A stretch of DNA of 64,000 bases from a virus: the IMG/VR virus record IMGVR_UViG_3300035703_000041, positions 1 to 64,000 of that record; one strand, 5' to 3'. The position numbers and the translations under genes were made by a program. Positions 14,966 to 55,337 of this stretch are shown here, piece after piece. Within the stretch, counting starts at the first letter, position 1. Each line of letters starts with the position of its first letter. Under the pieces are notes generated by a model. That model did not search any database. It had not been told where the DNA came from and was given only the letters and a program-made list of their open reading frames with translations.

Positions 14966-14968
14966 TCA

Positions 14969-14974
14969 TAAATA
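14969..14974 (+). promoter_or_regulatory. T4-like late promoter core TAAATA
   Basis: 4 nt upstream of ATG 14979; no SD. Confidence 0.6.
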
Positions 14975-14978
14975 TTAG

Positions 14979-31379: not shown

Positions 31380-33650
31380 TTGGCACTTCAAAATAATCCA
31401 GAAATTGATCGGATCGTAGCACATGCTATTGATATTGCAAAAGCCGCTAGCCATAAACTAGTTACAACGGAACATTTGGCACTAGCATTAATTGTCAACG
31501 AAGGCTTTAGAAATGTCATTGAAGATGCCGGTGTTGATCAAAATTCGCTAGTTGATGAGATTTCTAAACACCTAGCACAACAAACTCACCTTATGGGCGA
31601 TGCAGTAGAACAGCCAAATAAAACACATGCACTTGAACGTGTATTCAATCGAGCATTTACACAAGTTCTGTTTAGCAATCGTCAAGTAATGCAACCAGTT
31701 GACTTGTATCTAAGTCTTAGCAATGAGACTGATAGTTGGGCTGCATACTTCTTTACCAAATATGGTATGGAAAAGTCTAAGATTGTAACTTCGCATAATA
31801 ACAAAAATGCGCGTGGCGGTAATTTAGATTCTTCTGGTGCGGATGCAATTCTAAAAGAGTATTGTACTGATCTAAATGAACTTGCTGAGAATAACGAAAT
31901 CGATCCAGTTATTGGTCGCGAAAACGAACTTACTGAGATCGCACAGATCCTTGCACGTCGTAATAAAAACAACGTGCTTATGGTTGGTGATCCAGGTGTA
32001 GGCAAGACTGCAATTGCAGAAGGGCTTGCACTTAACATTGTTAATAAAAATGTTCCAAAGTTCTTAAAAGACTGGCGTGTCTATAACTTGGACATTGGTA
32101 CATTACTTGCTGGATCTAAATTCCGTGGTGAGTTTGAAGAAAAGCTACGTGAAGTAATTAACGCTCTAAGTAAGAAGGGTAAGTCTATTCTATTCGTAGA
32201 TGAAGCGCACCAAATGCGCGGAGCCGGTTCAGGCGGACACAGCGATGTTGACTTCTCTAACATGATTAAGCCAGCTCTTGCAAAAGGTAAGATCAAAGTT
32301 ATTGCCTCAACTACGTGGGAAGAATACAGCACAAGCTTTGAAAAGGATCGCGCACTTATGCGTCGTTTCCATAGGCTTACTGTTGATGAACCTACTCCTG
32401 TACATGCTAAGGAAATCCTAAAAGGATTACGTCCTTACTTTGAGAAGTTCCACACTGCTACAATTACAGATGATGCTATTGAAGCAGCAGTTGATCTTAG
32501 TGTTCGTTATCAAAGCGATAAGAAGCTACCAGACAAGGCACTTGACTTAATCGACAGTGCTTGTGCTCGTGAGAAAGTAAAAGATCACAAGAATTTTGCT
32601 GTTACACGTGGCATGATTGTTGATGAGATTAGTACTGCAACAAAGATTCCAATTAGCCAAATTGATGCTAAGAGTGATGAAGTTGCTGTTGATCTTGAAG
32701 GTGCAATTAAGTCTAAGCTGTACGGACAAGATGCAGCAGTAGACAATGTACTTGAAAAGGTATATGTTGCTAAAGCTGGACTTAAGAGCATCAACAAGCC
32801 AATGGGTGTGTTCCTCTTCTTAGGACCAACTGGTACAGGTAAGACTGAGCTTGCTAAGTTGCTTGGTGAAAACATGGGCATGAAGCTACTACGCTATGAC
32901 ATGGGCGAATACCAAGAGAAGCATAGCGTTGCAAGGCTTATTGGTGCACCTCCAGGATATGTAGGATATGATGACGGTAACTTAGGTGGTGGTTTGCTAA
33001 TTAGCGAAATTACTAAAAACCCAAACGCAATTATCCTCTTTGACGAAGTGGAAAAGGCACATCCTGATGTTATGACAGCACTGCTTGCTCTCATGGACGA
33101 GGGTATGGTAACCGGATCAAACGGTAAGAAAGCTGATGCACGTAATTGTCTTGTTATTATGACAAGCAATCTGGGTGCTCAGGAGAGCGAGAAGAACAGC
33201 ATCGGTTTTGGATCTCCTGAAAAGAAGGGAGAGGACGATAAGGCGGTGCAGCAGTACTTCCGCCCAGAATTCCGCAACCGTTTAGATGGTATTGTTAAGT
33301 TTGGTAAGCTTGATCAAATGAGCTTGCGTAAAATCGTAGCTAAGTTCATTGTTGAGATTAATGAACTGCTTGGTGATCGTGGTATTAAACTACGTCTTGA
33401 TGAACCAGTAGTTGATTTAATTATTGAACAGGGCTATGATGCTAAGATGGGTGCGCGTCCTATTAGTCGTAAGATTAATGAACTCGTAAAAGTTCCACTT
33501 AGCCGCAAAATTCTCTTTGATAAGATCCCTGCAGGTGTTACACTTGTAGCGAAGCTTACTGATGGTAAAATTGAATTTGTACAACATGACGACAACAAAG
33601 TGGTAGGAGATGATGGAATTATCCGCGTTGATGGCTCGGTTACAATCTAA
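31380..33650 (+). CDS. clpA: ClpA-like AAA+ unfoldase
   Basis: Clp N-domain; GDPGVGKT and GPTGTGKT Walker A; IGF loop; no ClpB coiled coil. Confidence 0.92.
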   Translation: MALQNNPEIDRIVAHAIDIAKAASHKLVTTEHLALALIVNEGFRNVIEDAGVDQNSLVDEISKHLAQQTHLMGDAVEQPNKTHALERVFNRAFTQVLFSNRQVMQPVDLYLSLSNETDSWAAYFFTKYGMEKSKIVTSHNNKNARGGNLDSSGADAILKEYCTDLNELAENNEIDPVIGRENELTEIAQILARRNKNNVLMVGDPGVGKTAIAEGLALNIVNKNVPKFLKDWRVYNLDIGTLLAGSKFRGEFEEKLREVINALSKKGKSILFVDEAHQMRGAGSGGHSDVDFSNMIKPALAKGKIKVIASTTWEEYSTSFEKDRALMRRFHRLTVDEPTPVHAKEILKGLRPYFEKFHTATITDDAIEAAVDLSVRYQSDKKLPDKALDLIDSACAREKVKDHKNFAVTRGMIVDEISTATKIPISQIDAKSDEVAVDLEGAIKSKLYGQDAAVDNVLEKVYVAKAGLKSINKPMGVFLFLGPTGTGKTELAKLLGENMGMKLLRYDMGEYQEKHSVARLIGAPPGYVGYDDGNLGGGLLISEITKNPNAIILFDEVEKAHPDVMTALLALMDEGMVTGSNGKKADARNCLVIMTSNLGAQESEKNSIGFGSPEKKGEDDKAVQQYFRPEFRNRLDGIVKFGKLDQMSLRKIVAKFIVEINELLGDRGIKLRLDEPVVDLIIEQGYDAKMGARPISRKINELVKVPLSRKILFDKIPAGVTLVAKLTDGKIEFVQHDDNKVVGDDGIIRVDGSVTI

Positions 33651-36064: not shown

Positions 36065-36102
36065 TACAAATAAATAGTCTATATACATTAATGGGCTATT
36101 AA

Positions 36103-39100
36103 ATGATCAATAAAACAATACTAAATGAGGGCGGCAATGTTGAAATAGATGGCATTGCTGCCCAACGTCTTGATTTAAACAAAGTTTCTCGCAGTGCTGT
36201 AGTTGCTGAAATAGATAAAGCACTACAAATTATTAACAGCACATTTAATAAAGCATACGGAGTTCCTTTATGGAGCCCAGAATTAATAAAAAACAAAGAG
36301 TTTTTAAGTGGTAGTGCGTTTCACTTCTTTAACGTAAAAATACCAGATGATCAATTCACTAAAGTTAAGTCTAGCGTTGGTGACATCGACACTATGGTTG
36401 ATAAAGATTTAGCACAAAAAGCAAGTGACTTTTTAACTAAAGCAAAAGGCAAGCAGTTTGGACCAGCAAAGTTAGTTGGCTTTAAACCTAACCCAGGAAT
36501 GGATACACTTATTAGTTTGTGGCAATTCAACAATCCACCTGTGAATGTACAAATAGATATGGAACTTGTCGACTACGATAAAGGTAGTCCAACAGAGTGG
36601 AGCAAGTTTAGCCACAGTAGCGCATGGGAAGATTTAAGTGTTGGTGTTAAAGGCGTATTCCACAAGTATCTATTGCGTTCGCTAACACATAAAGATGCTA
36701 AAGATCGCTACATTCAAATGAAAACAAAGCTTAAAAAAGTTACAGCAGCGGATTTAGCGTTTGCTGTTTCAGGTGGCGTGCGTAATAAGTTTGAACCAGT
36801 AATTGATCCAAAAACTAAAAAAACAGCAGTAGCACCAGACGGACTTCCAATATACAAGGAAGTGCCAGCAAGTGAAAGCAAGTATGTAACAGACATTAAA
36901 GGTATGTTTACACTTTTAATTGGACGCAAACCAGTTAAAGGTGAAGAAAAATTATTGGGTAGTTTTGTTGGCGTACTATCTTTAATCAACAAATATTTTA
37001 GCAATGAAGATAAAGATAAAATCACAAGTGCATTTATGGCATTAATATTTGGCCCTGCTGCTCAACAACTATACAAAGGTGATCCAGCAACAGATAAAAG
37101 AGAAAAAGAAATTGCTCTTAACAAAATGTTGGAAATTTTAAAAGTTAATGTTGATAAAGCAAGTTTAGCAAAAACTGTTGCAGATTATTATTCTAAGTAT
37201 AAAGCTGAATCAATTACAGAAGCAGATGCACCAGACTATAAGCGTCAAGGCATCAAGCACATTTATAATCCTGGCTCAACTGTTGAAATGAAAGATGTTG
37301 ACTTCTTAGCATTTATTGATGCAATTGCTAAGAATGGTGGCACACTTGATAACATACCAATTACACTTAAAGTAGATGGTGCAGGTATACGCTTTGGACG
37401 AGATCAAAGTGATAAACCATTTTTTATGACTAGTCGTGTTACAAATCCAATTTACGCTGATAACGTTGGTATGTTTGAAAAGTACGCTAGAGATAATAAT
37501 GGCAATGAAGAACAAATTGCTCGTGCTGAAAAGTATGATCAAGCATTAAGTTTAATTGTTAACAGCGACTTTATTAAAGTATTACCAAAAGACACAATTG
37601 TCCAAGCAGAAATGATGTACAATCCAATGGCTGAAAAGACAAGTGCTGGACTTAAGTTTGTAAACATCCCATATGATCCAAAGTTACTTGGTAAACAAAT
37701 GACGCTTGTGCCAATTGTCGCAAGTACATATTCAACTGGCGAAGCATTACCAAACACAATTCTTCAAAAAGTAATAAGCAAGTCTACTCCTCAAATTAAA
37801 ATACTTGGTACTGAGTTACAGCATAGCGATATTGATGTAAAAAATATTGTTGAACCAATTGCTAAGATGGATGATACGCTTCGTGCTGCGTTAGCAAGTA
37901 GGAAGAAAAATGATCCAGCAAAAGCAAAAGCAAAAGAAATACTAACAACAGCACGCAAGGCAATTAGTGATGCAATCATTAATAGCCCTAACATTAAAGG
38001 TAAAGATAAGCTAGGTAAGACTATTGAAGGTTTAGTTATTGCTATGCCAAATGGTCAACTTGCTAAAGTTACCAGTAGCGAAATGAAAGGTGCAATGGCT
38101 GCAAAAGCTATTAAGAAAGCACCAACAACAGGCAGCAATAGAACTAAAGCTGCTATTGTTACTGCTGGTAGCTTTGTTGGCCACATAGGTCATCAAAAAG
38201 TTGTTGATACTGTTATTAACTTTGCTAAAAAAGTTGGCGGTGACCCGTACATTTACATTAGCAGTAAAGTGGGACCAGATGATCCTATTCCACCAGAAGT
38301 AAAATTAGCTACTTGGAAGAAAATGTATCCAGAGTATGCAAAAAGTTTCCAACTAATTGTAAGCCCAGATGGTGTAACTGTTCCAAGTCCAGTTAAAAAG
38401 ATTGAAAAAGAATTAGTACTACCAGCAAACAGTCCTTACAAAAAGATTGTATTAATGGTTGGTACTGATCGTTATGAAGGTTTCAAGAAGTGGATGGATA
38501 CTCTTGAAAAGCGTATGAAGGATCCAGTAGCATTAGCAAAATATGGTGGAACACAAGATCAAGTTGATTACGAAACTATTGCTATACCACGCGGCGCAGC
38601 ATTAGGTGGTATTGATGCAAGCTTCACACAACTACGCAATACATTAAAAGATCCTAATCTTTCACTAAAAGAAAAGTTAGCTGTTTGGTCAAAAGGATTT
38701 GGTGGAAAGCTAGACGAAGATTGGATCAAAAAGTTAATGATGCTTTCTGCTCAAGGCATGGGAATTAAGTTAGGAGAAGCTAAATCACCATGGGATAAAA
38801 TGGTTAGAGCTGTTCCCAAACTAAAAGGACATGAAGATAGAGTTAACGATATATTAAAAGCAATTAAGCAAGCAAATGCAGAATATCAAGCAATACTTGA
38901 TAAAGAAAAAAATCCATTAAAAGAAGATGATGATCTAAATGTCCGTTTCCATGATACATTAAATCCAGCACTATTTAGAAATAACAAGATGAGTCCTATC
39001 GTAAGAGAAAAGCTGCTAAAAATAGCAGAGGACTTTAAGGATAGTTTAGGTGTTAAGTTACCAAATCTAAAAGACATTACTGTAAGTGGCAGTAATGCTG

Positions 39101-42100
39101 CATTCACTTATACACCAAAAAGTGATATTGATCTACACTTAGTTGTTGATTTACCTGAAGCAGATGGCGATGCTACTTATAGGGAATTGTTTGATGCTAA
39201 GAAGTTCCAATACAACGAGCAGCATGACTACAAGATTAAAGAATACGATGTAGAACTTTATGTGCAAAATGCAAATGATGAACATGTAAGTCAAGGTATC
39301 TACAGTGTAATGAATGATGCTTGGATTAAAGAACCACAACCAGTAAGTGGCGAGTACGATGAAGACAGCACACGCGCCAAATATGATCAAATAAAGTATC
39401 TCATACAAAAAGCATTAACTGTAAGAGATTATGCTTTAGCAGACAAGCTACGTCGAACTATTAAAAAGTATCGTCAAGTTGGGTTACATTCAACTGGTGA
39501 GTTTGGTCCTGAAAATCTTGCATTCAAAGCATTGCGTGCTAATGGCTACATTAAGAAACTGTATGAGTTATTAAATGATATTAAGGACAAAGAGTTTAGT
39601 TTAGAGAGTAACGATCAACGATTACTTGAAATTGATATGAGTCCAGGAGCACTCAAAAAGTTCTCAACTACTGAGATTGCAAAGTCAACTAGTGTTGGTT
39701 TTGAGTTTGAAATGATCGTACCTAACATGATAGATGACGGCAGTGAAAGTGAACCAGATTACGATTATGATGAATATGTAACAGATTCAACTGTTACTGC
39801 TATGCAAGATGATTTAATTAGATTCTTTAGAGATACTGAAACAAGTACAGCAATTAAACGAGCAGTTGAAGAAGTATCAGATGAAATAAATGATTTTATT
39901 TTAATGGAGTTTGATGGTGAATTAGATTCTGTAGATCAGCAGAGACGATTAAGAGAATTGTATAAAGCAGATACTTCACTCGAAGATGATGAAATAGAAA
40001 AGAGCATTGAAGATCAAGATAGCACTTATGACGAAGTATTAAGTTCTTTGAGAGATGAGTATATGGAAGACTGGGACAATCTAAGTGGATTCTTAGAATA
40101 TAACAGTCTTGAAATGATGTCTGAATGGGCTAGTAGATTTAATTGGGAATGGCCACACTACACTGAAGCTGGCAGCGATGAAGTCGACGAACAAGCAATG
40201 CGTGAAGTAGCAGATGAAATCAAAAACGCTGTTAGTATGTCAGTTAGGTCTTCTCCTAATTATCATGCATTTAAGAAAAATAGAGAATCTGGTGTTTGGT
40301 ATTTAGAAACTGATAGTTCAATTAATGCTGATGAAAGTTCTGGTGAAGGTGGACTAGAATTAGTAAGTCCTCCATTGCCACTTGAGCAAGCATTAGAAAA
40401 GTTAGATGCAGTTCTAAATTGGATGCAGAGATACGGCGCATATACTGATAGTTCAACTGGGTTCCATATGGGTGTAAGCATTCCGCAAATGGAAAATGTT
40501 GACTACATTAAGTTAATATTATTCCTAGGTGACAAATATGTATTAGATCAATTTGGTCGTTTAGGCAATTCATACACCCGCAGCGCACTAGATAAGATGG
40601 AAGTACAAAATGTTCCATATGTTATGAAAAACATGCCAACTGTATTTGATGCTCTAAAAGGTGGATTAAACAAAGCAGCATTAAAAATGCTTGAATCAGC
40701 TCTTGTACCTCGAGGAGACAAATATACTAGCGTAAACATTAAGGGCAGCACAACACCTAGTGGAGACATCAAGGATAATTACATTGAATTCCGTAGTGCT
40801 GGTGGAGATTACTTAGAAGCGATTGAAAAGATTAAAAATACACTATTGCGTTATGTTCGTGTAATGGCGCTTGCTGCTGATCCAAATGAAGCAAAGGAAG
40901 AGTATGCTAAGAAACTCTACAAGATGCTATACAATGCTCAAAGCAATAAAAATGAAGATAATGTAGTTAGATTGTTTAGTATGTTTGCTAGCGGCAATAT
41001 TTCAAAAGCAGAACTTGTAATGAAGCTTAAGGCAAAACAAGAATTAAGATTGGCAAAGAAAAGAGGCCCAATTGATTACGCAGTCTTAGATAGGAATAGC
41101 GATCCTATTACTATAGTTAAAGCAATTAACAATAGCGAAGCTTTAACAAAAGGAATAGAATGGGAAAGAAGCAACCCAGTATCTGGCGGTGTGAGAGGTG
41201 TAAGATTAGCGACACTAGACGATATAAAAGCTGTAGCTAATAGAAATACTGAAGGACAATGGCAACGTTGGAATGTTTATGGACACGAAGGACAAATCTT
41301 TACTAGTGTTTCAGCTCGCAATCGTCAAGAAGCAAGTCAACTTGCACTACGCTGGGGAAGAGAAAACGATAGTGTTATTTCTCATGTTACTCCTGAATCT
41401 GAGGATGAATTTGCAGCACTACATAGAACAGAATCAAAAGAAGTTGTAACTGAACTTGCTAACAAGCCATACCCTTTTAAAACACAAGGCAATAAAAAGC
41501 ATTTTCAAGCTCGTTTCGTAACAGACAACAAACTAGTGTATAATGTTATGATTTTGGTCCCTCTTGAAGATTTTGAACCAAATAAAGCAGAAATAGAATT
41601 TTTCTCTGAAAATGAAGATGTTTTAAGAGGACATAAAATAACTGGAACTGGTGATTCTTTTAAAGTATTTGCGACTGTGTTAGAAATAATAAAAGCTTAT
41701 CTAACAAAGCACAAAACAATCAACGAATTTGAATTTGGTGCTAACAAAAGTGAACCGTCCCGTGTAAAGTTGTATGACACTATGGCAAAAATGTTACCAA
41801 AATATATTAATAATTTCAAATTTTTCAATAAGTATCCAAATAACTATAACGGATTCGCGTACCATTTTGTAAAAGTCAAAAAACCAACTACAGTAAAAGA
41901 AAATGAATTTGTAACTGAACTTGCTAATAAACCATATGAATATGATTTAGAAAGCGATAGCAGAGTTCTTCGTGCTACCTTTAAAACAGATGCTGGTCAA
42001 CCTTATAGAATTTATATCGTAAAAGAGAAAGACGAAGAAGGGGAAGTAAAATATATCTCTGTTGAGTTCTCTGCTCTTAAATATGTAGATGGTCGATTCT

Positions 42101-42510
42101 TAACTACACAAGCTAAAACCGGAACAGGTGACGCATTTAGAATATTTGCAACAGTTGGTGCAGTACTAAAACGCTATTTGGATGAAAATCCAGAAATTAC
42201 TAGATTTGAATTCTCTGGTGATAAGGATGAACCAAGTCGAATAAAGCTATATGACACTATGGCTAAAATGTTGCCTAAGTTTATTCCACAATTCAAACTA
42301 ATTGAAATTGAAAAAGGATTTATGTTTAATCATTATCAATTTTCAAAAGTAAGTAATGAATCAAAAAATCCAAGTTCATTGAAAGAATATATTGAAGTAT
42401 CTTACAAACCTTTTATTCGAGAAAAGAAAGAAGAACCAAAAAAAGAGTTAACAGACATGCAAAAAGCGTGTATACTAGGCGGACAAGAATATACAGGTGA
42501 GATAAACTAA
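36103..42510 (+). CDS. 2135-aa multidomain internal-head polyprotein (NTase, KxDG ligase-like, HIGH NTase, NTase, amidoligase, tandem repeat)
   Basis: SGSA..GDID; KVDGAG; GHIGH; SGSNA..SDIDLH; GFEFE..D.S..ELVSPP..STGFH..EFR; TAAATA at 36071. Confidence 0.75.
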   Translation: MINKTILNEGGNVEIDGIAAQRLDLNKVSRSAVVAEIDKALQIINSTFNKAYGVPLWSPELIKNKEFLSGSAFHFFNVKIPDDQFTKVKSSVGDIDTMVDKDLAQKASDFLTKAKGKQFGPAKLVGFKPNPGMDTLISLWQFNNPPVNVQIDMELVDYDKGSPTEWSKFSHSSAWEDLSVGVKGVFHKYLLRSLTHKDAKDRYIQMKTKLKKVTAADLAFAVSGGVRNKFEPVIDPKTKKTAVAPDGLPIYKEVPASESKYVTDIKGMFTLLIGRKPVKGEEKLLGSFVGVLSLINKYFSNEDKDKITSAFMALIFGPAAQQLYKGDPATDKREKEIALNKMLEILKVNVDKASLAKTVADYYSKYKAESITEADAPDYKRQGIKHIYNPGSTVEMKDVDFLAFIDAIAKNGGTLDNIPITLKVDGAGIRFGRDQSDKPFFMTSRVTNPIYADNVGMFEKYARDNNGNEEQIARAEKYDQALSLIVNSDFIKVLPKDTIVQAEMMYNPMAEKTSAGLKFVNIPYDPKLLGKQMTLVPIVASTYSTGEALPNTILQKVISKSTPQIKILGTELQHSDIDVKNIVEPIAKMDDTLRAALASRKKNDPAKAKAKEILTTARKAISDAIINSPNIKGKDKLGKTIEGLVIAMPNGQLAKVTSSEMKGAMAAKAIKKAPTTGSNRTKAAIVTAGSFVGHIGHQKVVDTVINFAKKVGGDPYIYISSKVGPDDPIPPEVKLATWKKMYPEYAKSFQLIVSPDGVTVPSPVKKIEKELVLPANSPYKKIVLMVGTDRYEGFKKWMDTLEKRMKDPVALAKYGGTQDQVDYETIAIPRGAALGGIDASFTQLRNTLKDPNLSLKEKLAVWSKGFGGKLDEDWIKKLMMLSAQGMGIKLGEAKSPWDKMVRAVPKLKGHEDRVNDILKAIKQANAEYQAILDKEKNPLKEDDDLNVRFHDTLNPALFRNNKMSPIVREKLLKIAEDFKDSLGVKLPNLKDITVSGSNAAFTYTPKSDIDLHLVVDLPEADGDATYRELFDAKKFQYNEQHDYKIKEYDVELYVQNANDEHVSQGIYSVMNDAWIKEPQPVSGEYDEDSTRAKYDQIKYLIQKALTVRDYALADKLRRTIKKYRQVGLHSTGEFGPENLAFKALRANGYIKKLYELLNDIKDKEFSLESNDQRLLEIDMSPGALKKFSTTEIAKSTSVGFEFEMIVPNMIDDGSESEPDYDYDEYVTDSTVTAMQDDLIRFFRDTETSTAIKRAVEEVSDEINDFILMEFDGELDSVDQQRRLRELYKADTSLEDDEIEKSIEDQDSTYDEVLSSLRDEYMEDWDNLSGFLEYNSLEMMSEWASRFNWEWPHYTEAGSDEVDEQAMREVADEIKNAVSMSVRSSPNYHAFKKNRESGVWYLETDSSINADESSGEGGLELVSPPLPLEQALEKLDAVLNWMQRYGAYTDSSTGFHMGVSIPQMENVDYIKLILFLGDKYVLDQFGRLGNSYTRSALDKMEVQNVPYVMKNMPTVFDALKGGLNKAALKMLESALVPRGDKYTSVNIKGSTTPSGDIKDNYIEFRSAGGDYLEAIEKIKNTLLRYVRVMALAADPNEAKEEYAKKLYKMLYNAQSNKNEDNVVRLFSMFASGNISKAELVMKLKAKQELRLAKKRGPIDYAVLDRNSDPITIVKAINNSEALTKGIEWERSNPVSGGVRGVRLATLDDIKAVANRNTEGQWQRWNVYGHEGQIFTSVSARNRQEASQLALRWGRENDSVISHVTPESEDEFAALHRTESKEVVTELANKPYPFKTQGNKKHFQARFVTDNKLVYNVMILVPLEDFEPNKAEIEFFSENEDVLRGHKITGTGDSFKVFATVLEIIKAYLTKHKTINEFEFGANKSEPSRVKLYDTMAKMLPKYINNFKFFNKYPNNYNGFAYHFVKVKKPTTVKENEFVTELANKPYEYDLESDSRVLRATFKTDAGQPYRIYIVKEKDEEGEVKYISVEFSALKYVDGRFLTTQAKTGTGDAFRIFATVGAVLKRYLDENPEITRFEFSGDKDEPSRIKLYDTMAKMLPKFIPQFKLIEIEKGFMFNHYQFSKVSNESKNPSSLKEYIEVSYKPFIREKKEEPKKELTDMQKACILGGQEYTGEIN
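41446..42350 (+). repeat. Tandem ~155-aa domain duplication inside the giant ORF
   Basis: VTELANKPY...TGTGD.F..FATV...EPSR.KLYDTMAKMLPK.I occurs twice, 465 nt apart. Confidence 0.85.
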
Positions 42511-42511
42511 A

Positions 42512-42658
42512 ATGCCAGAGAAAAAGTTTAATGATGACACTGCTAAAACTATTTGGAACAAACTAAAAGGTAAGGATGTTCCACAAGACTACAGTGATAA
42601 AGACAAGGAAGATATTGTTAAACGATACTGGCATAAAGCAATGGAAAGCGAACAGTAG
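42512..42658 (+). CDS. 48-aa hypothetical protein (not in ORF track)
   Basis: MPEKKFNDDTAKTIW...YWHKAMESEQ. Confidence 0.45.
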   Translation: MPEKKFNDDTAKTIWNKLKGKDVPQDYSDKDKEDIVKRYWHKAMESEQ

Positions 42659-43188
42659 TGTTATTAACAGATTACTATAAATCTGTTTTAGAAAAAGAAC
42701 ACGCCAACGGAGAATGGGGTATTGCTTCTGTTCATTATGCACCACGTGTTGCAAATATGATGAAGCGTTATAATCTAAATGAAGTTTTAGATTACGGTTC
42801 AGGTGCAGGCAATTTAGAAAAAACACTAAAAACTATATTACCTGATGTAATTGTTTATAATTATGAGCCAGGTATACCTAAATGGAATATTATTCCAGCA
42901 CCATGTAAAATGGTTGCTTGTATTGATGTTATTGAACATATTGAACCTGAGTGTATAGATTCTGTATTAGATGATTTAGAAAGAATTATTGAGGGTTACG
43001 CATTTATATCAATTTCTACTACATTAGCAAATAGAGTATTAAACAATGGATGGAATGCTCACATTTGCCTAAAAGATCCACAAGAATGGAAAGAAATTTT
43101 TGAGAGAAGATTTCAAATAATTTGCCCTGGAATGTATGACGGCGGTGTAGAAATTGAAATATGCAGGAGAGACAATGAAAATATATGA
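42658..43188 (+). CDS. Class I SAM methyltransferase
   Basis: VLDYGSG, CIDVIEHI. Confidence 0.8.
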   Translation: MLLTDYYKSVLEKEHANGEWGIASVHYAPRVANMMKRYNLNEVLDYGSGAGNLEKTLKTILPDVIVYNYEPGIPKWNIIPAPCKMVACIDVIEHIEPECIDSVLDDLERIIEGYAFISISTTLANRVLNNGWNAHICLKDPQEWKEIFERRFQIICPGMYDGGVEIEICRRDNENI

Positions 43189-43693
43189 GTTAGCAGGTAA
43201 ACCAACAGTTTTCGTAGATATGGATGGCGTGCTTGCTGACCTGTTTAACCACGTTGGTGACATTCACGATGTTGAACATTACAATCAAATGACTGATCAA
43301 CAGTGGCAAGATTTTTTTCAAAATACTAATGCTTATCACTTGTTTAAGGATTTACCCCCATTCCCAACAGCAAATCGTTTACTACGTATGGTAAAAGGAA
43401 TGGTTGGTGGATACAAAATTCTTTCAAGTCCACTTAACTTTGACCGTGAAGGCAGCATAAAAGGCAAGCGTGAGTGGTTAAGTAGGCATATATCTGTAGC
43501 CCCAGATGGCGTTATTTTCGAGCATGAAAAATACAAATATGCTGTTAGTAACGGTAAACCAAACATATTAATTGATGATTACGGTGTAAACATTAAAAAA
43601 TGGCGTGCTGCTGGCGGTATTGGAATTAAGTACCAAGCAGATGAAAACAGTTTAGAAGAATTAGCGGAACAGTTAGCGGCTGCTTTGAAATAA
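43175..43693 (+). CDS. 5'(3')-deoxyribonucleotidase (NT5C HAD)
   Basis: DMDGVLAD, LSSP, LIDD; leader MKIYE|. Confidence 0.85.
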   Translation: MKIYELAGKPTVFVDMDGVLADLFNHVGDIHDVEHYNQMTDQQWQDFFQNTNAYHLFKDLPPFPTANRLLRMVKGMVGGYKILSSPLNFDREGSIKGKREWLSRHISVAPDGVIFEHEKYKYAVSNGKPNILIDDYGVNIKKWRAAGGIGIKYQADENSLEELAEQLAAALK

Positions 43694-43715
43694 ATATTAC
43701 ATAGGAACTTATGTA

Positions 43716-45401
43716 ATGAAAATTAAAGAATTATTAGAGGGTGTTGGACGCATTACACCATATAATCAAACAGTTGATGTAGGGCCAAACGAAATCAAAA
43801 AACAAGCAGCTAAGTTTGGATTTAAAGTAGACAAGGACGGTTATCCTCCTGTTATAGGCAACGGACGCTACGCTAAAAATTCCACCCCTAACAAACTAAT
43901 GAATCTTGGACTTACTGAATCAAAAATTATTGAGGCTAGAGGTGTAACTGCTCGCGTTGCTGGTGAGCGATACATAAATGATAAAGATCCAAATGATTAC
44001 AGAGTTATCCAATCCATTAAAGTTATAAATCCACCAAAAACTCCAGCATACAAAACCGCTGAAGAACTTAAAGCTGCTATCAAGGAATATCTTCCTAGAA
44101 ATGCTAAAACAGTCGATGACAACAAACATGGCAGTGATTTAAGAGCTGCAATCATAGCAAAAGTTGCTACACCATCAAATGATGTTGAGTATTGGATAAG
44201 GTATATTAAAGCAGTACCTCCAACGGGTGTACATCAAATGTGGCAAACACTACGCGGATACAGTTATGATAATCCAAGATCAGCTAGTGAAAAGATTAAA
44301 CTTAAACCATCTGATTTAATTAAAGATGAAAGTCCTAAAAATCTAAAACAACTAGCAACAGAAATTATGTCTTCTATCGAAGCAATGGGTGATGAAGAGT
44401 TGACAAACGCAATGCGTCAAGCAGTTAATCATGCCGTACAAGGTAAAGACATTGTAATTAAAGATGGTGTTAAATTTGCTACAGCTATATCTAAATATGC
44501 AGGAGAATATTTAGGTGCAATGTCGCTGATGACCGGTAAGATCATGAAAGGTGATCTTAAAAAAGCTATGGAAGCATTAGACATTAATACATTAAAAGGC
44601 AGTAAAATTACTTTCCCACAAGCAAGATTGCAAGAACTATATGACAGCACTTTAACAACATCAGATGGCAAAATATTACAAATAAGCACCAAGATGCATA
44701 AAACCGGTTCTGGATCAAGTTTAAGCGGTGTAGTAAAGCAACTTAATGATGATATTGAATCACAGTATCCAAAAGGTGCTGCTGTTTTACGTATGCTTGG
44801 TGGTGAATCAAGTGGTGCAGCTGGTGTGTTAAAAGCTGCTCAAGAGTACAAATTAATTAATGCCTCAGATGTAAAAGAAGTAATGAGTATGGATCCTGGT
44901 TCTAAAGATCCAACAATTATTAAAAGTCCAAGATTGCAAAGATTATTTTCAGAACAAAAAGTTAGTGCTGGAGCACCAAAAAGATTTGGTTACACAATAC
45001 GCAGACATTTAATGGCTGCTATTGCAAACAGGACAGTTAAAACAATTAATGAAGATAATGAAGTATTAACTGCACTTATGCTCGCTTTAAACAACAACAA
45101 TTATTTGCAAGTTGTTACTGAAACATCTATAACTGGCAACGATGTTACTATGACTTTTTATACAAAATATCCAACAGAATTTAGTGGCAAACCTAAATTA
45201 CAAAATGCTGCTTTTTGGAGCACTGGTGAACAAGGTAGAATAGCATTCTCATTACCTACAACTAATGTTGATGTTGAAGTTGAAGAACCAGAAGTAGAAG
45301 TTCCAGTAAAAAGAAAACCAGTACCAATTACAGCAAGAAATCCTAAATTAGATAAATCAAAGTCAGCCCCGAAAGGAGTTGGTCGCGGTAAGAGGGATTA
45401 A
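43716..45401 (+). CDS. Internal-head-type polyprotein with possible PD-(D/E)XK module
   Basis: Leader MKIKELLE|; junction LTE|SKIIE|; GEY..YDS..ISTK; TAAATA at 43691. Confidence 0.55.
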   Translation: MKIKELLEGVGRITPYNQTVDVGPNEIKKQAAKFGFKVDKDGYPPVIGNGRYAKNSTPNKLMNLGLTESKIIEARGVTARVAGERYINDKDPNDYRVIQSIKVINPPKTPAYKTAEELKAAIKEYLPRNAKTVDDNKHGSDLRAAIIAKVATPSNDVEYWIRYIKAVPPTGVHQMWQTLRGYSYDNPRSASEKIKLKPSDLIKDESPKNLKQLATEIMSSIEAMGDEELTNAMRQAVNHAVQGKDIVIKDGVKFATAISKYAGEYLGAMSLMTGKIMKGDLKKAMEALDINTLKGSKITFPQARLQELYDSTLTTSDGKILQISTKMHKTGSGSSLSGVVKQLNDDIESQYPKGAAVLRMLGGESSGAAGVLKAAQEYKLINASDVKEVMSMDPGSKDPTIIKSPRLQRLFSEQKVSAGAPKRFGYTIRRHLMAAIANRTVKTINEDNEVLTALMLALNNNNYLQVVTETSITGNDVTMTFYTKYPTEFSGKPKLQNAAFWSTGEQGRIAFSLPTTNVDVEVEEPEVEVPVKRKPVPITARNPKLDKSKSAPKGVGRGKRD

Positions 45402-45415
45402 AATGGGAGATCAAT

Positions 45416-45658
45416 ATGAAAATAAAAAATACATTGGAGGATTTTACAATCCCCTTCAAACCAACATCACCCCCTGGAACGATCAAAAGAAAAGCTTTAG
45501 AATACTTAGGTAAAAAGCTTGGAGAAAAACTCTCCAAAAAAGATTTAAAACTTGTGGAATCTAAAGCAGACAAAATAAAGAAATCCACAGTTAAGGCAGA
45601 TAGGCAAATAAATCATCAATTAGTAAAACAAGTTGAACTAATTAAAGATATAGAATAA
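45416..45658 (+). CDS. Small basic head-type protein
   Basis: Leader MKIKNTLE|. Confidence 0.5.
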   Translation: MKIKNTLEDFTIPFKPTSPPGTIKRKALEYLGKKLGEKLSKKDLKLVESKADKIKKSTVKADRQINHQLVKQVELIKDIE

Positions 45659-45972
45659 TGCTAGTTCAAATTAATGTAGATGTATATGCTTATTACAAGC
45701 ATCAACCCCCAGTTTATAGATTTTGGGTAAATGATACCCTTTACAACGAAAGAGAATTTTGGGTTGATTGTTTATCAAACTATATAGAAGAAGAAATGTA
45801 TGTTGAACTAGAACCTGGCAAACATACTTTTTTAATAGAAAAAGTAACTACTGACATACATTCTAAAATATGGGTAGAAAAGTTTGTTGTAAAATACAAT
45901 GAAACTGTAAATACAGTGTTTTTAAATATAGATCCACAAGATAAACAAATAATTAATTTTGAAATAGGATAA
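45658..45972 (+). CDS. Hypothetical beta-rich protein
   Basis: PPVYRFWVND.LY.ER. Confidence 0.5.
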   Translation: MLVQINVDVYAYYKHQPPVYRFWVNDTLYNEREFWVDCLSNYIEEEMYVELEPGKHTFLIEKVTTDIHSKIWVEKFVVKYNETVNTVFLNIDPQDKQIINFEIG

Positions 45973-46000
45973 ATAATATTATTATACGGAGACGCAAGTC

Positions 46001-46387
46001 ATGACTAAGAAGAGAATTAAAGAAGGCCTCAGCGACGAAGCTATGGCAGTTGACCGCGACCATGAGGTACAAATGGCTCGCGCTCAACTTTATCATTTAG
46101 CTAATGATGCTGTACGCTTACATAAGTTGTTAAAGAACGTAACTGAATCAGAAGGACTAGAAGGTTGGATGCAAAGCAAGATTACACTTGCTGCGGACTA
46201 CATTAAATCAACTGCTGATTACTTGGAATACGATAAGATTAAAGCACCTAGACCAGTAACAGTTACTCCAGCACCAATGATGCCAACTGCTGGTATGCCT
46301 GAAAGTGTAAGCGCAGGTGGTATGGGTGCTGGATCGGTTGCTACTGCTCCAATGGCTCTTAAAAAGAAACCATTAGTTAGAAGATAA
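46001..46387 (+). CDS. Head-type late protein
   Basis: RIKE| leader; MARAQL...EGWMQSKIT.A.DY; TAAATA at 45970. Confidence 0.6.
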   Translation: MTKKRIKEGLSDEAMAVDRDHEVQMARAQLYHLANDAVRLHKLLKNVTESEGLEGWMQSKITLAADYIKSTADYLEYDKIKAPRPVTVTPAPMMPTAGMPESVSAGGMGAGSVATAPMALKKKPLVRR

Positions 46388-47083
46388 TTTCAATATTTCC
46401 CAAGTATGCTCCCAGTTTTCAACACGGTGAGCAATATCAACACTAACAGCCAGGGGGTAATCATTTCCCCCTGGCAATGTTTTATCACCAAAGAAAATAA
46501 CTGGGCCTGTAGGTTTAATAAACTCTAATACTTGGCGCTTATCTTTACCTGTAGGGTAAATGTCTATTCCAGTATCACCACCAATCATAAAGTCAATGTT
46601 TTTGAACTGGCGTTCAAGTCTTAATGCTATATCAATCCGCTCACCGTGTTCTTCATCATACTTTTTGTATGTGTCTCGCTGTTGGGAATCAGCGCCGCGA
46701 CCTAATACACTAAAATTTACTAGTCCAGTTCGAATTTCTATATGATTCCCTGTACGTATGGGAAACTTACTGTTAGTTAATTCTTCATCTAACGCATCAA
46801 TTAGTTCGTGTGGTGGTTGCCAGTTTGAAGCATGTGTTATTAGCTTACCTATTCTTACTTCGTTCCCGCAACAGTTAAAGATCATTTTAGCGTTATCTAT
46901 TACTTCTTCCCCAACTTGTGCTAAAGTTTTAGGATAATCACTTCCAGTAACAAGATAAGTATTATGTGTTTTTTGCCACTCAACAAACCAATCTTTAAAT
47001 TTAGGATCCATTTTAGCCCTGCTTGGTGTTAGTGTACCATCTACGTCAAAAACATAACTTATATTCATGTTTAAATTTAACAT
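46373..47083 (-). CDS. HAD-IIB phosphomannomutase-like protein
   Basis: FDVDGTLTPSR, VTGSD, IE.R.G..NFS.LGR, FFGDK..PGGNDY. Confidence 0.8.
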   Translation of the reverse strand: MLNLNMNISYVFDVDGTLTPSRAKMDPKFKDWFVEWQKTHNTYLVTGSDYPKTLAQVGEEVIDNAKMIFNCCGNEVRIGKLITHASNWQPPHELIDALDEELTNSKFPIRTGNHIEIRTGLVNFSVLGRGADSQQRDTYKKYDEEHGERIDIALRLERQFKNIDFMIGGDTGIDIYPTGKDKRQVLEFIKPTGPVIFFGDKTLPGGNDYPLAVSVDIAHRVENWEHTWEILKLSSN

Positions 47084-47129
47084 AAGTTATATGTTAAAAT
47101 CAAATAAATAAACAATATTGGAGACTTGA

Positions 47130-47558
47130 ATGTCACGCGGATTAATGAAAAAGTATATAGATATACTAATGGAAGCTTTAAGCTATTCCAGCTTGCAAGA
47201 TGCAGGAGATGATTATAGTCCTGGCAATACTCAAATTTGGTATTGGAGAGAAGATCTTGGACGCGATATGATGATGGGATATGATTTCCTTAAAAAGCAA
47301 AACAAGCTTCCGGATCCAGCAAATTTATCAGCTACACATGTACTAATTGGTAGCATTGCTGAAACTAATTTAGATAAAATTTATTCAATGATGCAATCAG
47401 AAAGTTGGAGCCCACAGGGTGAAGCTAGAGATTTAATTAATAAAAGCGGGGCTGGTCATACAAGTATGAGTGTTGGTGATATTATTGTAATTAATAATGA
47501 TGCATCTATGGTTGATAAAGTTGGGTTCGTAAACCTAGCAACAGGGGAAGAAATATAA
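47130..47558 (+). CDS. YodL-like domain protein with head-type leader
   Basis: L..IY...GHTSMSVGDII...VD.VGF; leader MKKYIDILME|; TAAATA at 47105. Confidence 0.6.
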   Translation: MSRGLMKKYIDILMEALSYSSLQDAGDDYSPGNTQIWYWREDLGRDMMMGYDFLKKQNKLPDPANLSATHVLIGSIAETNLDKIYSMMQSESWSPQGEARDLINKSGAGHTSMSVGDIIVINNDASMVDKVGFVNLATGEEI

Positions 47559-48934
47559 TGTTACTTGAAAGTTTATTAAAAGAGTTTGATGAAGCAGTAA
47601 ACAAACCTAAATTTACTGGTTATTGGAAAGCTCAAGATAAAGCACCTCCAGGCAAGAAAATGGTTGGTGAAGAAGAAAAAACTACAGAAGCATCAACTTT
47701 GGATACTGACATTGAATATGAACCAAGTGTAGATCAAGAGTTTGATAAGAAAGAGCTTGCAGCATTGTTAACTCAAAAATTAACAGGACTAGCACCAAAA
47801 GAAGAACGAGCAATTAGATTAAAAATATTTTATGATTATACTTATGATCAAATTGGTGAAAAATTTGGGGTATCTGGTGATAGAGCAAGAGACATCTTTA
47901 TGAAGGGAATTAGAAAATTGAGGCACCCTTCTCGCGCGAGAGAAATTAGACCTTTCCTTGAGGATGAAAATCCAACAGATAAAATTACAATGGATATACC
48001 ACTATTTTTACGTATGATGGAATATGCTAAAGAAGATGCAAAAACAGATATGGACTTGCATCAAGTAACTGCTCGCGCAATAGAATTAATGCAACAACAT
48101 GACTACCTATGTATGGATAATTATGATACTATCATAAACAATAGCGAACCTATAGATGAAGGTTGGTTAGATAAAGTTTACTCTGCTGGTCGTAACTTTG
48201 CTGATACTGCCACTCTAGGTGGTTACAAGTATGCACGAGCTGGTGCTGATTACGCTGCTAAGAACATTGGCAATAAATTAGGGTTCGATGTGAAACCTAC
48301 CACATATCAAAAAGAACTTGATCAGGAAGTTGAAAAACTTAACAAAGATTGGGAAAAGGAACCAGGTGCAAGTCTAGCTGGCATGGGTGGAGCAATGGCT
48401 TTACCTCTAGCCGGTCAATACGGCGCTGCTGTTAAAGGCGCACAGGGGTTAGGTGGTCAAGCATTAGATGCTTACGGTAAGTTTGTTAAAACATATCCAT
48501 TGGCTAAAAAAGCTTTAGGTTTAGAAAACAAAGATGAAGATATAGATGAAGAGAAAAAAGGTCTTTACTATTATGTAAACAAGCGTAAAAAGGCTGGCAC
48601 AAGCAGACCAGCTAGTCATCCAAAAGCACCAAGCGAACAAGATTGGAAGAACGCTGCTAAGACTGCAAAGAAAGAAAGTGTGGGCGAAGCGGGTCAATTT
48701 TCATATGGAGCTAAAACTCCACGCAAAGGCACAGTTGCTTACAACGCAGCACAAAAGCGTAAAGAAGATGAAAAAAGACAAAAACCAATTGAGCCAAAAG
48801 ATCAAATGGTCGGTGTTGCTAAGGTAACAAAAGAAGGCAAGGAAAAAGGCGCTGATGGCAAAGCTTGCTGGCCAGGTTATCGTTATGCTGGCACAGAGAA
48901 CGGCAAAGACAAGTGTGTGAAAGTTAAGAAGTAA
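47558..48934 (+). CDS. Modular polyprotein containing an RpoD region-4 module
   Basis: KGIRKLRHPSR..EIRPFLE; about 7 short modules bounded by xxE junctions. Confidence 0.65.
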   Translation: MLLESLLKEFDEAVNKPKFTGYWKAQDKAPPGKKMVGEEEKTTEASTLDTDIEYEPSVDQEFDKKELAALLTQKLTGLAPKEERAIRLKIFYDYTYDQIGEKFGVSGDRARDIFMKGIRKLRHPSRAREIRPFLEDENPTDKITMDIPLFLRMMEYAKEDAKTDMDLHQVTARAIELMQQHDYLCMDNYDTIINNSEPIDEGWLDKVYSAGRNFADTATLGGYKYARAGADYAAKNIGNKLGFDVKPTTYQKELDQEVEKLNKDWEKEPGASLAGMGGAMALPLAGQYGAAVKGAQGLGGQALDAYGKFVKTYPLAKKALGLENKDEDIDEEKKGLYYYVNKRKKAGTSRPASHPKAPSEQDWKNAAKTAKKESVGEAGQFSYGAKTPRKGTVAYNAAQKRKEDEKRQKPIEPKDQMVGVAKVTKEGKEKGADGKACWPGYRYAGTENGKDKCVKVKK

Positions 48935-50539
48935 ATGTTAATTAAAGATTTGCTACAAGGATCTACGCATGTTAATGAGGATGCTATATCAGATCTTGCC
49001 AGTAAATTAAAGAGTACTAAAGCAACAAGTTATGATAATATCGATGCAATTATGCAAAAGATAGCAAAAGACAATAATATAACAGCTAAAGAATTACACG
49101 ACATTTGGGTAAAAAAGTACGGTGAAAAACCAGATGATTGGATTAAAGATCAACTTAATGAAGCATTAACCGCTAAAGATACAGTTGAACGTTGGATTGC
49201 TGTTTTTAAAAGTAGTAAGCATCCAAAGTTTGCAGGTAAAACTCCTGAGCAGCGTGAGAAGATGGCAAGAGCTGCACAATATCGTGCAGTTCATAATAAA
49301 AAAATTAATGAAGCAAAAGTAACACTATATACTGATCCATCATACTATGGTGCTGAAGTTGCAGACAATGCTGGCGAAGGTATACCCGTACAAGAAATAC
49401 CATTAGACAATTTAGTTGGGTTTGAACCTGACGTTAAAATGCAGGACAAAAAGAGTGCAGCCAATATGTCTAAAATGGTTGACCTATTGAAAGCAGGCAA
49501 GGGCAAAGAACTACCACCAATACTAGTACGCAAGTATAAAAATGGTTATCAAGTATTAGATGGACATCATAGATTCCATGCTTACAAGAAAGCTGGAATA
49601 AAAACTATTCCAGCTAAACTTGTTCCTGATGAAGATATCAAAGTTGTTGATAAAATTGAAGAAGGTCCAGTTTGGGATAAAGTAAAGAATACTGCACTTG
49701 CTGGAACAATGGCAGGTGCGCTAGGGTATGGTGCGCTAACAGGGCAGTTACGTGACGAACCAAGGCAAGTGCCAGTTGACAAACCTCCTTTAGAAATTAC
49801 TATACCAGGTGGTCAAGCAGAACCTGAAGTTAAAAAAGAACCAGAAAAACTATCACCAAGTACCGCTACAAACGCAAACAAAGAAATGGAAAAACTCGTG
49901 CTAACTGTTGCTTATCGCTCTGGGATAAGAGGTCAAGAGTTGGCACAATTCATGGGACAAGTTGCTCATGAGACACTAGGATTTCAACGTTTAGTAGAAG
50001 TTGGTAGCGCAGAATACTTTAATAGATATGATCCAGAACATAGTCCTAAAAAAGCAAAGATACTTGGTAATGTTAATCCTGGTGACGGCATACGTTATAA
50101 AGGTCGCGGGTTTATACAAATAACTGGGCGTGACAACTATAAGCGTGCTGGGAAAGCACTAGGGATTGATTTAGAAAATAACCCAAAGTGGGCAAGCAGT
50201 CCTAAAATTGCTGCTAAGATCGCTGTATGGTATTGGAAAAGTAGAGTAAAACCAGCAGTGGATGACTATACTGATACTATTGGTGTTACTTCAAAAATTA
50301 ATCCTAGTATGAATGGTCTTGGTGATAGAGACATGAACTTTCATCATTATTTAGAAAAGCTTAATTTAAATGAAAATTTTGCTGATGGAAAGAAACCAGG
50401 ACGCAAGGGATTAGCCAAAAGAGTTGGTGTTAATTGTAAACAAAGCGTGACAAAGTTAAGAAAAATTGCTAGTAATAGTAGTGGTGAAAAACAGCGTATG
50501 GCACATTGGTGTGCAAATATGAAAGGCGGCAAAAAATGA
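48935..50539 (+). CDS. Modular polyprotein with ParB/Srx and GH19 muramidase modules
   Basis: PPILV...VLDGHHRF; AQFMGQVAHET...YKGRGFIQITGRDNY. Confidence 0.75.
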   Translation: MLIKDLLQGSTHVNEDAISDLASKLKSTKATSYDNIDAIMQKIAKDNNITAKELHDIWVKKYGEKPDDWIKDQLNEALTAKDTVERWIAVFKSSKHPKFAGKTPEQREKMARAAQYRAVHNKKINEAKVTLYTDPSYYGAEVADNAGEGIPVQEIPLDNLVGFEPDVKMQDKKSAANMSKMVDLLKAGKGKELPPILVRKYKNGYQVLDGHHRFHAYKKAGIKTIPAKLVPDEDIKVVDKIEEGPVWDKVKNTALAGTMAGALGYGALTGQLRDEPRQVPVDKPPLEITIPGGQAEPEVKKEPEKLSPSTATNANKEMEKLVLTVAYRSGIRGQELAQFMGQVAHETLGFQRLVEVGSAEYFNRYDPEHSPKKAKILGNVNPGDGIRYKGRGFIQITGRDNYKRAGKALGIDLENNPKWASSPKIAAKIAVWYWKSRVKPAVDDYTDTIGVTSKINPSMNGLGDRDMNFHHYLEKLNLNENFADGKKPGRKGLAKRVGVNCKQSVTKLRKIASNSSGEKQRMAHWCANMKGGKK

Positions 50540-50964
50540 GGCAGTGGATTAATTTGTTTGAAGACATTAATGATGAATGGTTCAGTAACGGCGGTTTCCA
50601 AGCATGGAAACAACCAGTCCCAGTAAAGTATACTACAGCAGCAGACTCAGGCACTATTCAAACACTTGAAGGTCCAGTAGCATATGGTGCTGGATTTAAA
50701 ATTATTACTGGACCAAAAGGTGAACAGTATCCAGTTCCTCCACAAAAGTTTGCAGAACTATATGATGATAATGAAGATGGTACTGCTACACCAAAGAAGA
50801 TTGTTAAGACCGCTAAAGTAGCAGATCACAACGGCGCTGTTAAGACAAGCTGGGGCGAGACGCTAAACTATACTGCAGGTGAGGATGTGATTGTACGACA
50901 TGGACCAGGCGATTATGGTGTAGTTAAGAAAGATATTTTCGCTAAAACTTATACAACTTCTTAA
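50536..50964 (+). CDS. PGDYG-domain protein with head-type leader
   Basis: TLEG...GPKGEQYPV; GPGDYGVV..DIFAKTY; leader MRQWINLFE|. Confidence 0.65.
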   Translation: MRQWINLFEDINDEWFSNGGFQAWKQPVPVKYTTAADSGTIQTLEGPVAYGAGFKIITGPKGEQYPVPPQKFAELYDDNEDGTATPKKIVKTAKVADHNGAVKTSWGETLNYTAGEDVIVRHGPGDYGVVKKDIFAKTYTTS

Positions 50965-55288: not shown

Positions 55289-55314
55289 TATTTATTTGAA
55301 ACTACCTATAAATA
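55289..55314. promoter_or_regulatory. Back-to-back divergent late promoters
   Basis: Minus-strand TAAATA at 55289-55294 and plus-strand TATAAATA at 55307-55314. Confidence 0.7.
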
Positions 55315-55337
55315 CATATAGTTATTAGGAACATGCC

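Follow-up and report, generated by a model that had tools for sequence, protein, structure and literature searches.

In bacteriophage T4 the capsid targeting sequence (CTS), MKTYQEFIAE, is cut after its Glu by the prohead protease gp21, which cleaves after Glu in L/I-x-E, and fusion of the CTS to foreign proteins leads to their loading into the head. Polyvalent proteins, which include DarB/DdrB of phage P1, carry many unrelated enzymatic domains on one polypeptide (Iyer, Burroughs, Anand, de Souza and Aravind 2017, PMC5512222). Processing of these proteins by an embedded metallopeptidase (MPTase) was proposed; this domain is present in about 70% of some classes and is treated as frequent, not obligatory (PMC5512222). 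Head and ejection proteins of phiKZ, 201phi2-1 and SPN3US are cut by gp175/gp245 at S/A/G-x-Glu. Here we describe a locus at positions 36103–50964 of a 64,000-nucleotide stretch (the window) of the virus record IMGVR_UViG_3300035703_000041 from IMG/VR, in which four long open reading frames (ORFs) encode chains of modules with a short leader at the N-terminus and hydrophobic-x-Glu motifs at the inner joints. With a probability of about 0.65 we interpret this locus as the part of a jumbo T4-like phage genome that encodes the internal proteins (head cargo). Its chain proteins would probably be loaded into the head, cut apart and injected with the DNA, and head targeting alone is more probable than this full mechanism.

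Leaders and joints of the chain proteins

A sequence-only reading of the window had placed the boundaries between recognisable domains of the four ORFs directly after [LIV]-x-E-like motifs. We confirmed the four ORFs (Table 1), and every motif that had been listed was found at the residue named. Four sites of ORF 47558 (FDE12, TTE44, FLE135 and TKE426) have F or T instead of L, I or V two residues before the Glu (P3, with Glu as P1), so that only an 'x-x-E' reading fits them. As the 2135-residue protein (ORF 36103) holds 29 [LIV]xE sites, eight of which had been picked, the question is whether the picked sites are special. A homologue at 42–46% identity keeps six of seven flagged sites, compared to one of 13 unflagged [LIVM]xE sites (Fisher P = 0.0012). 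The enrichment of the motif that was to be checked in linkers was borne out in part; overall frequency was ordinary, whereas the positions of the sites and their conservation were significant and far from what chance would give.

Family-level relatives were gathered by single-ORF searches, and the matches fell into blocks equal to the modules of the sequence-only reading. Across hundreds of related proteins these modules turn up singly or in new arrangements, either after a leader or after another module, and the joints of the wider relatives carry hydrophobic-x-Glu nearly without exception. The motif at joint 373 of the 2135-residue protein is kept in 118 of 119 homologue clusters, inside a linker of freely varying length. 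At a control boundary near residue 665, between the ligase-like and cytidylyltransferase-type domains, it is found in 27 of 120 homologues. Joint 892 is weaker (68 of 118 homologues keep the site) and was counted as an exception; several homologues of module 2 terminate just past GMGI, at this joint. A related locus, L011, has MFE before N at the place aligned to joint 941. Stand-alone homologues of module 3 end in ..LSL and fused ones go on with x-E (SLKE, SLVE or SLQE), while its homologues Cr30 gp180 and Molly gp026 begin with the leaders MRKFSQLLE and MNLKTLVE. The second copy of DUF6934 keeps a full leader-like string, KENEFVTE. In Xanthomonas phage BUDD, S-CRM01, Cr30 and Atu_ph07, homologues of the modules of the 2135-residue protein are encoded by individual genes that lie next to one another. 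This arrangement suggests a shared pathway, and the modules, which had been described as unrelated, are by this genomic evidence probably functionally linked. A megablast search of phage records with ORF 36103 gave no match, nor did a sequence search of the PDB with modules 1 and 2.

The leaders of relatives follow the consensus MRAxEF[IV]xE, which shares an E-F-I-x-E core with the T4 CTS. Starts of this type were found on 105 ORF segments of related loci, versus 0.35% of internal Met residues. Because 40 copies of this leader are encoded by 40 different codon strings, selection appears to act on the peptide. Among homologues of module 1, 104 of 109 clusters have a leader that ends in E right before GGN, with L/I/V/M at P3 in 103 of the 104; these leaders come in 93 different forms and are 5 to more than 16 residues long, and the remaining five clusters start M-GGN and lack a leader. 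A variable leader ending in x-E before GGN is the pattern of a putative removable propeptide. Since leader length varies, a fixed-length position-specific scoring matrix was of little use for leaders. Those of the window are MKIKELLE, MLLVDLFE, MINKTILNE, MLLESLLKE and MLIKDLLQ...VNE, and a relative of the stand-alone paralogue of module 1 (Table 1) starts with MRAREFIFE before GGW. Leader-like starts are also present in ORF 45416 (MKIKNTLE) and ORF 46001 (MTKKRIKE before G), and the PGDYG-domain ORF likely starts at ATG 50536, which would give the leader-like MRQWINLFE before D. The contig's best match to the leader profile of the relatives lies at 55308–55661, where a full TATAAATA stands before a 107-residue ORF with the start MRATDIIRQ; this ORF is a candidate for further cargo outside the main locus.

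Table 1. Positions of the chain proteins, their modules and associated features in the window
Feature	Position	Strand	Description
Stand-alone module 1 paralogue	14968–16013	+	Outside the locus, behind ATAAATA; starts MLLVDLFE before GGW
ATAAATA late-promoter-like motif	36070–36076	+	26 nt before ORF 36103
ORF 36103	36103–42510		2135 residues
Leader MINKTILNE	36103–36129	+	Ends L-N-E before GGN
Module 1, residues 10–373	36130–37221	+	Nucleotidyltransferase-like, phrog_19290; ends ITE before AD
Module 2, residues 374–892	37222–38778	+	Ligase-like KxDG domain and HxGH cytidylyltransferase-type domain; ends LGE before AK
Short spacer module, residues 893–941	38779–38925	+	Ends LKE before DD
Module 3, residues 942–1176	38926–39630	+	Pol-beta-type nucleotidyltransferase, PF01909, phrog_36119
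Module 4, residues 1177–1784	39631–41454	+	Acidic stretch, Amidoligase_2 and further domain; preceded by RLLE before ID
Two DUF6934 copies, residues 1785–1939 and 1940–2095	41455–42387	+	Each begins after VTE before LANKPY
ATAAATA motif	43690–43696	+	19 nt before ORF 43716
ORF 43716	43716–45401		561 residues
Leader MKIKELLE, module A and SKIIE before A	43716–43934	+	Module A is residues 9–68, ends NLGLTE before S
ORF 43716 body, residues 74–561	43935–45401	+	Starts RGVTAR
Small ORFs, putatively late	45416–45658, 45658–45972, 46001–46387	+	
ATAAATA motif	45969–45975	+	Precedes ORF 46001–46387
ATAAATA motif	47104–47110	+	Precedes ORF 47130–47558
ORF 47130	47130–47558	+	First gene of apparent tightly coupled operon; TAATG overlap with next ORF
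ORF 47558	47558–48934	+	458 residues; chain of small modules with Cys-bearing basic C-terminal module
Sigma-70 region-4 cassette, residues 45–135 of ORF 47558	47690–47962	+	
ORF 48935	48935–50539	+	534 residues; leader (residues 1–15), two small modules and the three parts listed below
ParB_N, residues 127–243 of ORF 48935			
Gly/Ala-rich hydrophobic segment and GH19 muramidase, residues 244–480 of ORF 48935			
Conserved basic C-terminal module, residues 481–534 of ORF 48935			54 residues
PGDYG-domain ORF	50536–50964	+	ATGA overlap with stop of ORF 48935

The C-terminal module of ORF 48935 (NFADGKKPG...) is preceded by Glu in all 39 distinct contexts, with L/I/V/M at P3 in 34 of them (P = 8e-16) and in 22 of 26 after collapsing similar contexts; in many contexts it follows a leader directly (MRAQEFVGE, MRASEFIIE or MRINELLE). 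Blocks corresponding to residues 124–240, 241–478 and 478–534 of this ORF recur in 199 related stretches. An AlphaFold2 model of residues 1–300 had a mean predicted local distance difference test score (pLDDT) of 68.5. Values fell below 50 at residues 1–11, 120–125 and 243–298, and these breaks correspond to sites 15, 126 and 243, three of the four sites. An unflagged site at residue 154 is buried in the ParB core of the model. For ORF 47558, the boundaries of BLAST high-scoring segment pairs (HSPs) from 120 homologues peak at residues 135, 201, 330, 377 and 426. Both ORFs end in a Cys-bearing basic module, at 48836–48931 (GADGKACW..YRY.GTENGKDKCV) and 50375–50536 (NFADGKKPG..HWCANMK). Each of the two keeps 83–90% identity across otherwise unrelated chains, and a role in zinc or DNA binding is possible.

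In other chains, module A of ORF 43716 is found joined to NT5C, GH19, ParB, Fe/Mn-superoxide dismutase, Cu/Zn-superoxide dismutase, pterin dehydratase or DUF6934, and [LIM]xE follows it in 35 of 36 contexts. Four proteins of other phages (P0068, P0086, P0077 and P0083) combine the same leader and module A with superoxide dismutases, pterin-4a-carbinolamine dehydratase or 5'-nucleotidase. Such 'auxiliary metabolic' enzymes may also be head cargo. More than 30 clusters have the body of ORF 43716 on its own, led by peptides of the MRAKEFLSE type, and RGVTAR comes directly after E-[SA] in 30 of 30 contexts. Its model (pLDDT 82.7) contains an SH3/Tudor-like barrel and a second domain, for which weak but concordant leads point to a resemblance to the PD-(D/E)xK nuclease fold of MspI/HinP1I-type restriction endonucleases; D237, S251 and K253 are invariant in the alignment of the body. 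On this model the body may be a packaged nuclease-like protein. Foldseek returned no match for it at E < 0.3, a VIA-wide structure search reached Z values of 5.1 or less, under the noise guide, and a related-locus search with ORF 43716 as the query gave no match.

Whether homologous modules are shuffled at the listed junctions had also been put up for checking, and relatives do swap cassettes there. Compared with the window, a related locus that is 83% identical (L009) shows cassette gains or losses at junctions 941 and ~1932–2093 of the 2135-residue protein, 44/135 of ORF 47558, and 243 and 480 of ORF 48935. It has an extra module of about 100 residues at junction 941, lacks the sigma region-4 cassette, and contains one copy of DUF6934 versus two in the window, with the ends of this indel at the predicted junctions. 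Its GH19 protein joins another upstream module at VIDE before GPIW (KIEE before GPVW in the window) and ends in KLKLE, where the window protein goes on with NLNE before NFADG. When breakpoints were defined objectively against L009 alone, only three of eight were no more than 3 residues away from a strict [LIVM]xE motif, and two others (E44 and E135) match joints with T or F at P3. The ParB module of relatives is flanked on both sides by QGVAE, which is the commonest Glu-ending pentamer in related loci (74 copies versus 0.2 expected).

Phage type, late motifs and virion relatives

The window makes up the first 64 kb of a viral contig of 95,224 bp, for which CheckV gives a completeness of 26%. 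Its family-B DNA polymerase is of the T4 type; the closest relatives, at 44–50% identity, are those of Phosso, Atu_ph07 and the Rak2-like group, all of them jumbo T4-like phages, and virion structural and fibre-like proteins are encoded by ORFs adjoining the locus. This kinship and these neighbours indicate that the contig is part of a jumbo-phage genome from the T4 superfamily.

The proposal that TAAATA late promoters start the transcription units held in the sharper form ATAAATA. This heptamer is depleted in the window (13 copies versus 29.5 ± 6 expected), and all 13 copies lie 4–37 nt upstream of an ORF start on the same strand, including copies 19–26 nt before ORFs 36103, 43716, 46001 and 47130. 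We take the ATAAATA form to match the NATAAATA late promoters of T4-like phages, and from this motif the genes of the locus look late-expressed. ORFs 47130, 47558, 48935 and 50536 overlap or abut (TAATG or ATGA) and therefore look like one coupled operon. Inside the locus, a methyltransferase, an NT5C 5'-nucleotidase and an HAD-type phosphatase are encoded at 42658–43693 and 46373–47083 (minus strand) by genes that are devoid of leaders; in other phages NT5C is fused into chains that bear them.

The four ORFs gave no peptidase family match at E ≤ 0.1. A related 167-kb contig (G005) contains a T4-like head module with a Peptidase_S77 match of 87 bits, and an S77 protease is present in four of five large relatives, among them each of the three with a completeness of 95% or more. 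The major capsid protein of the 167-kb contig carries YLGE before S, presumably about where gp21 cuts T4 gp23, near Glu-65. On the contig studied here, a short Gp23-family match of 30.8 bits with internal TGA and TAG codons lies beyond the window, at 87448–87654 of the genome, and a second weak match to this family lies at 81478–81618; both resemble fragments of a capsid-protein-like sequence and not a capsid gene. A Clp-type ATPase of 756 residues with two AAA+ domains (phrog_4871) is encoded at 31380–33650 of the window, and a ClpP-like protease candidate, recognised from its N-terminal sequence, lies near the contig end at 94204–94797 of the genome.

Homologues of two modules have been detected in virions. 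In Campylobacter phage vB_CcoM-IBB_35, the homologue of residues 9–348 of the 2135-residue protein is the product of gene 1-56, which starts with MKLSELMFILE before GGN and is among the structural virion proteins identified by mass spectrometry (17% coverage). In Agrobacterium phage Atu_ph07, gp196 is homologous to the amidoligase module 4, and its N-terminal ..KKLTE before L aligns with RLLE before ID of the window. This protein was found in virions with 14 peptides (30% coverage), and its gene is two genes from the portal gene gp198.

Proposed mechanism and alternatives

We infer from these sequence comparisons that the window proteins are packaged, cut at their internal joints and ejected, and that they act as effectors. 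The chain proteins would be made late, and their T4-CTS-like leaders would dock them on the scaffolding core while the prohead is being built. Once activated, a gp21-type prohead protease would strip the leader and cut the exposed hydrophobic-x-Glu joints, so that one gene would give rise to several separate proteins in the head, which would exit with the DNA at infection. The predicted cargo comprises two nucleotidyltransferase-type enzymes, a ligase-like/cytidylyltransferase pair, an amidoligase-type enzyme and the DUF6934 domains, as well as a sigma region-4 mimic, a ParB-N domain, a GH19 muramidase and small basic modules. Leader and linker share their terminal motif, so a module could pass from one chain to another or sit by itself after a leader, and this mobility would explain the mix-and-match among relatives. 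The model of cassettes loaded and cut in the head is supported by the late motif, the leaders, the L/I-x-E joints, the shuffling, the protease of relatives and the virion homologues; it falls short at two domain boundaries that have no site. The figure of more than 20 effectors should be read as an upper bound, with leaders and peptides of less than 6 kDa included in the count. Internal cutting of the 2135-residue chain would be expected to yield products of 40, 57, 27, 69, 18 and 18 kDa, as against 240 kDa for the uncut protein. Gain of a linker, which had been suggested to make a domain injectable, would be insufficient, as an N-terminal leader would also be required.

Several observations weigh against the head-cargo reading. 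A PF03420 (Peptidase_S77) gene was not found on the 95-kb contig, which is 26% complete, and the scaffold and capsid genes were likewise not found on this fragment. The leaders of the window diverge from the MRAxEFIxE consensus. The density of [LIV]xE in the four ORFs (observed/expected ratios of 0.88, 1.44, 1.22 and 1.13) compares with 1.11 for all contig ORFs, so density is no argument. Clusters of HSP boundaries coincided with sites in 7 of 16 cases versus 4.3 expected (P = 0.09, not significant), in a crude test with clusters that were too broad. The boundaries near residues 665 and 1655 of the 2135-residue protein have no site, which means that some modules would remain fused. At the joints of ORF 47558 and its homologues P1 is mostly E and P3 is loose, often non-hydrophobic, and site 76 of ORF 48935 lies within a predicted helix. 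Both of the virion-detected homologues are single-module proteins and thus support packaging, not internal cleavage. The authors of the IBB_35 study found that observed and predicted masses mostly agree, a result that fits removal of a short leader and is silent on internal cuts. Finally, QGVAE is nearly always encoded by CAA GGT GTG GCG GAA, with 14 distinct 15-mers among the 74 copies; it is conserved as DNA, so part of its conservation may serve recombination instead of cleavage.

The alternative that we consider unlikely, and yet the one with most in its favour, is that the chains are leader-targeted head cargo that stays whole, as do Alt and the N4 virion RNA polymerase, and that the internal motifs are relics of leaders from before the fusions. 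The leaders of stand-alone homologues do align with internal joints, the second DUF6934 copy retains a whole leader-like string, the neighbouring genes found elsewhere for the modules of the 2135-residue protein suggest joint action, and some boundaries lack a site. Relics should decay, however, and joint 373 has been kept in nearly every cluster within an otherwise free linker. The C-terminal module has P1 and P3 retained ahead of it in 39 unrelated contexts, whereas unflagged sites with an identical form show no such conservation, and in T4 the core proteins are broken into many fragments by gp21, which acts at accessible L/I-x-E sites. It is improbable that the linkers are mainly joints for homologous recombination with the peptide motif as a by-product. 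The nearly fixed QGVAE DNA and the exchange of cassettes exactly at QGVAE linkers fit this explanation, but most joints, including all of those in the window, are not QGVAE and have in common P1 Glu and a hydrophobic P3. With P2 and the flanks free there is too little DNA identity for recombination, and the leaders show no such fixation of codons. This explanation is also compatible with cleavage rather than opposed to it, and the QGVAE joint may double as a recombination site. The QGVAE codons are GC-rich within AT-rich genomes (loci L028–L106, e.g. L057, L054 and 15436–18129 of L011), whereas leader codons are free.

Two further explanations can be set against the head-cargo reading. If the products were unpackaged late cytoplasmic enzymes plus a lysis protein, the N-terminus would serve translation, stability or membrane targeting and the GH19 protein would be an endolysin of the signal-anchor-release (SAR) type. 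Enzymes of this kind are usually cytoplasmic, a Gly/Ala-rich hydrophobic segment precedes the GH19 domain, a layout also seen in SAR endolysins, and module 1 homologues of BUDD and Vibrio phage pv27 have no leader. Against this, homologues of two modules are present in purified virions, the EF-I-x-E core of the leader agrees with that of the T4 CTS, which was defined by experiment, GH19 relatives bear the same leader directly, and a SAR domain 243 residues from the N-terminus would be unworkable unless the chain were cut; we regard this explanation as very improbable. Chance is hardly credible. A three-residue motif expected every 50–70 residues will land near some boundaries, in keeping with the ordinary density and the non-significant cluster test, but the family-level counts and the contrast in conservation between flagged and unflagged sites contradict it.

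A wider interpretation, which we hold to be doubtful as a whole, is that the locus represents a widespread cassette system of the T4 superfamily. It would combine a universal address peptide and protease joint, by which any protein could be added to head-delivered chains, a joint that is at the same time a recombination site in some lineages, and an injected counter-defence pathway. The cargo of such a system may include nucleotidyltransferases, amidoligase, superoxide dismutases, nucleotidases, muramidases, the sigma mimic and a possible nuclease, and the enzymes of the 2135-residue chain may be pre-made and act ahead of all phage gene expression.

Should cutting of the chains in the head take place, these phages would deliver with their DNA a changeable kit of ready enzymes that is compactly encoded and reshuffled at a fixed joint. 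The repertoire of injected phage proteins would then be far wider than the three internal proteins (IPs) and Alt of T4, and many 'hypothetical' multi-domain ORFs of environmental jumbo phages would be accounted for. Leader and joint would provide a simple sequence rule for predicting virion cargo from genomes, as well as rules, taken from nature, by which T4-type capsids could be designed to carry foreign proteins, and the modules would point to counter-defence activities of the first minute, testable one by one.

Comparison with known systems

The papers that we found, with subscription journals mostly uncovered, included none on cassettes shuffled between prohead-protease sites or on cargo polyproteins jointed by protease sites. 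The polyproteins of RNA viruses and retroviruses are similar in that a protease of the virus itself separates one translation product at short linker motifs, in retroviruses within the assembling particle. There is no evolutionary relation, and the products here would be optional cargo and not the replication or structural core. Phages of the phiKZ type share with this locus a giant phage, many head-internal proteins and a distant relative of gp21 that cuts after Glu, sometimes at multiple sites per protein. They differ in having a small residue at P3, in belonging to another lineage and in that the cuts remove propeptides, not cassettes; the joints described here have L/I/V/M at P3, and the polymerase and head genes are of the T4 type.

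With T4 IPI, IPII, IPIII and Alt the locus shares a short leader that has an E-F-I-x-E-type core and terminates in L/I-x-Glu, predicted late expression, a head module of the T4 type that in relatives includes an S77 protease, and a hypervariable locus of variable, dispensable-looking cargo that includes enzymes, Alt being an ADP-ribosyltransferase. The T4 cargo consists of single proteins that are cut once (Alt at both ends), whereas here there are several modules per ORF, up to 2135 residues, with the motif at inner joints. Unlike the T4 cargo, the same modules appear in many combinations across phages, and their packaging and cleavage are predicted. Polyvalent proteins resemble the chains in their late or virion context, in the fusion of a ParB-type domain to a lysozyme, and in the proposed delivery with the DNA and processing. 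By Pfam and PHROG assignments, the four ORFs fall within the 2–15 domains of unrelated activity per polypeptide that define this class. They depart from it in that no embedded peptidase was found, the joints match a prohead protease and the leader is of the T4 type. The logic of address peptide and protease is that of T4 IPI–III and Alt, and the multi-enzyme architecture is that of the polyvalent proteins.

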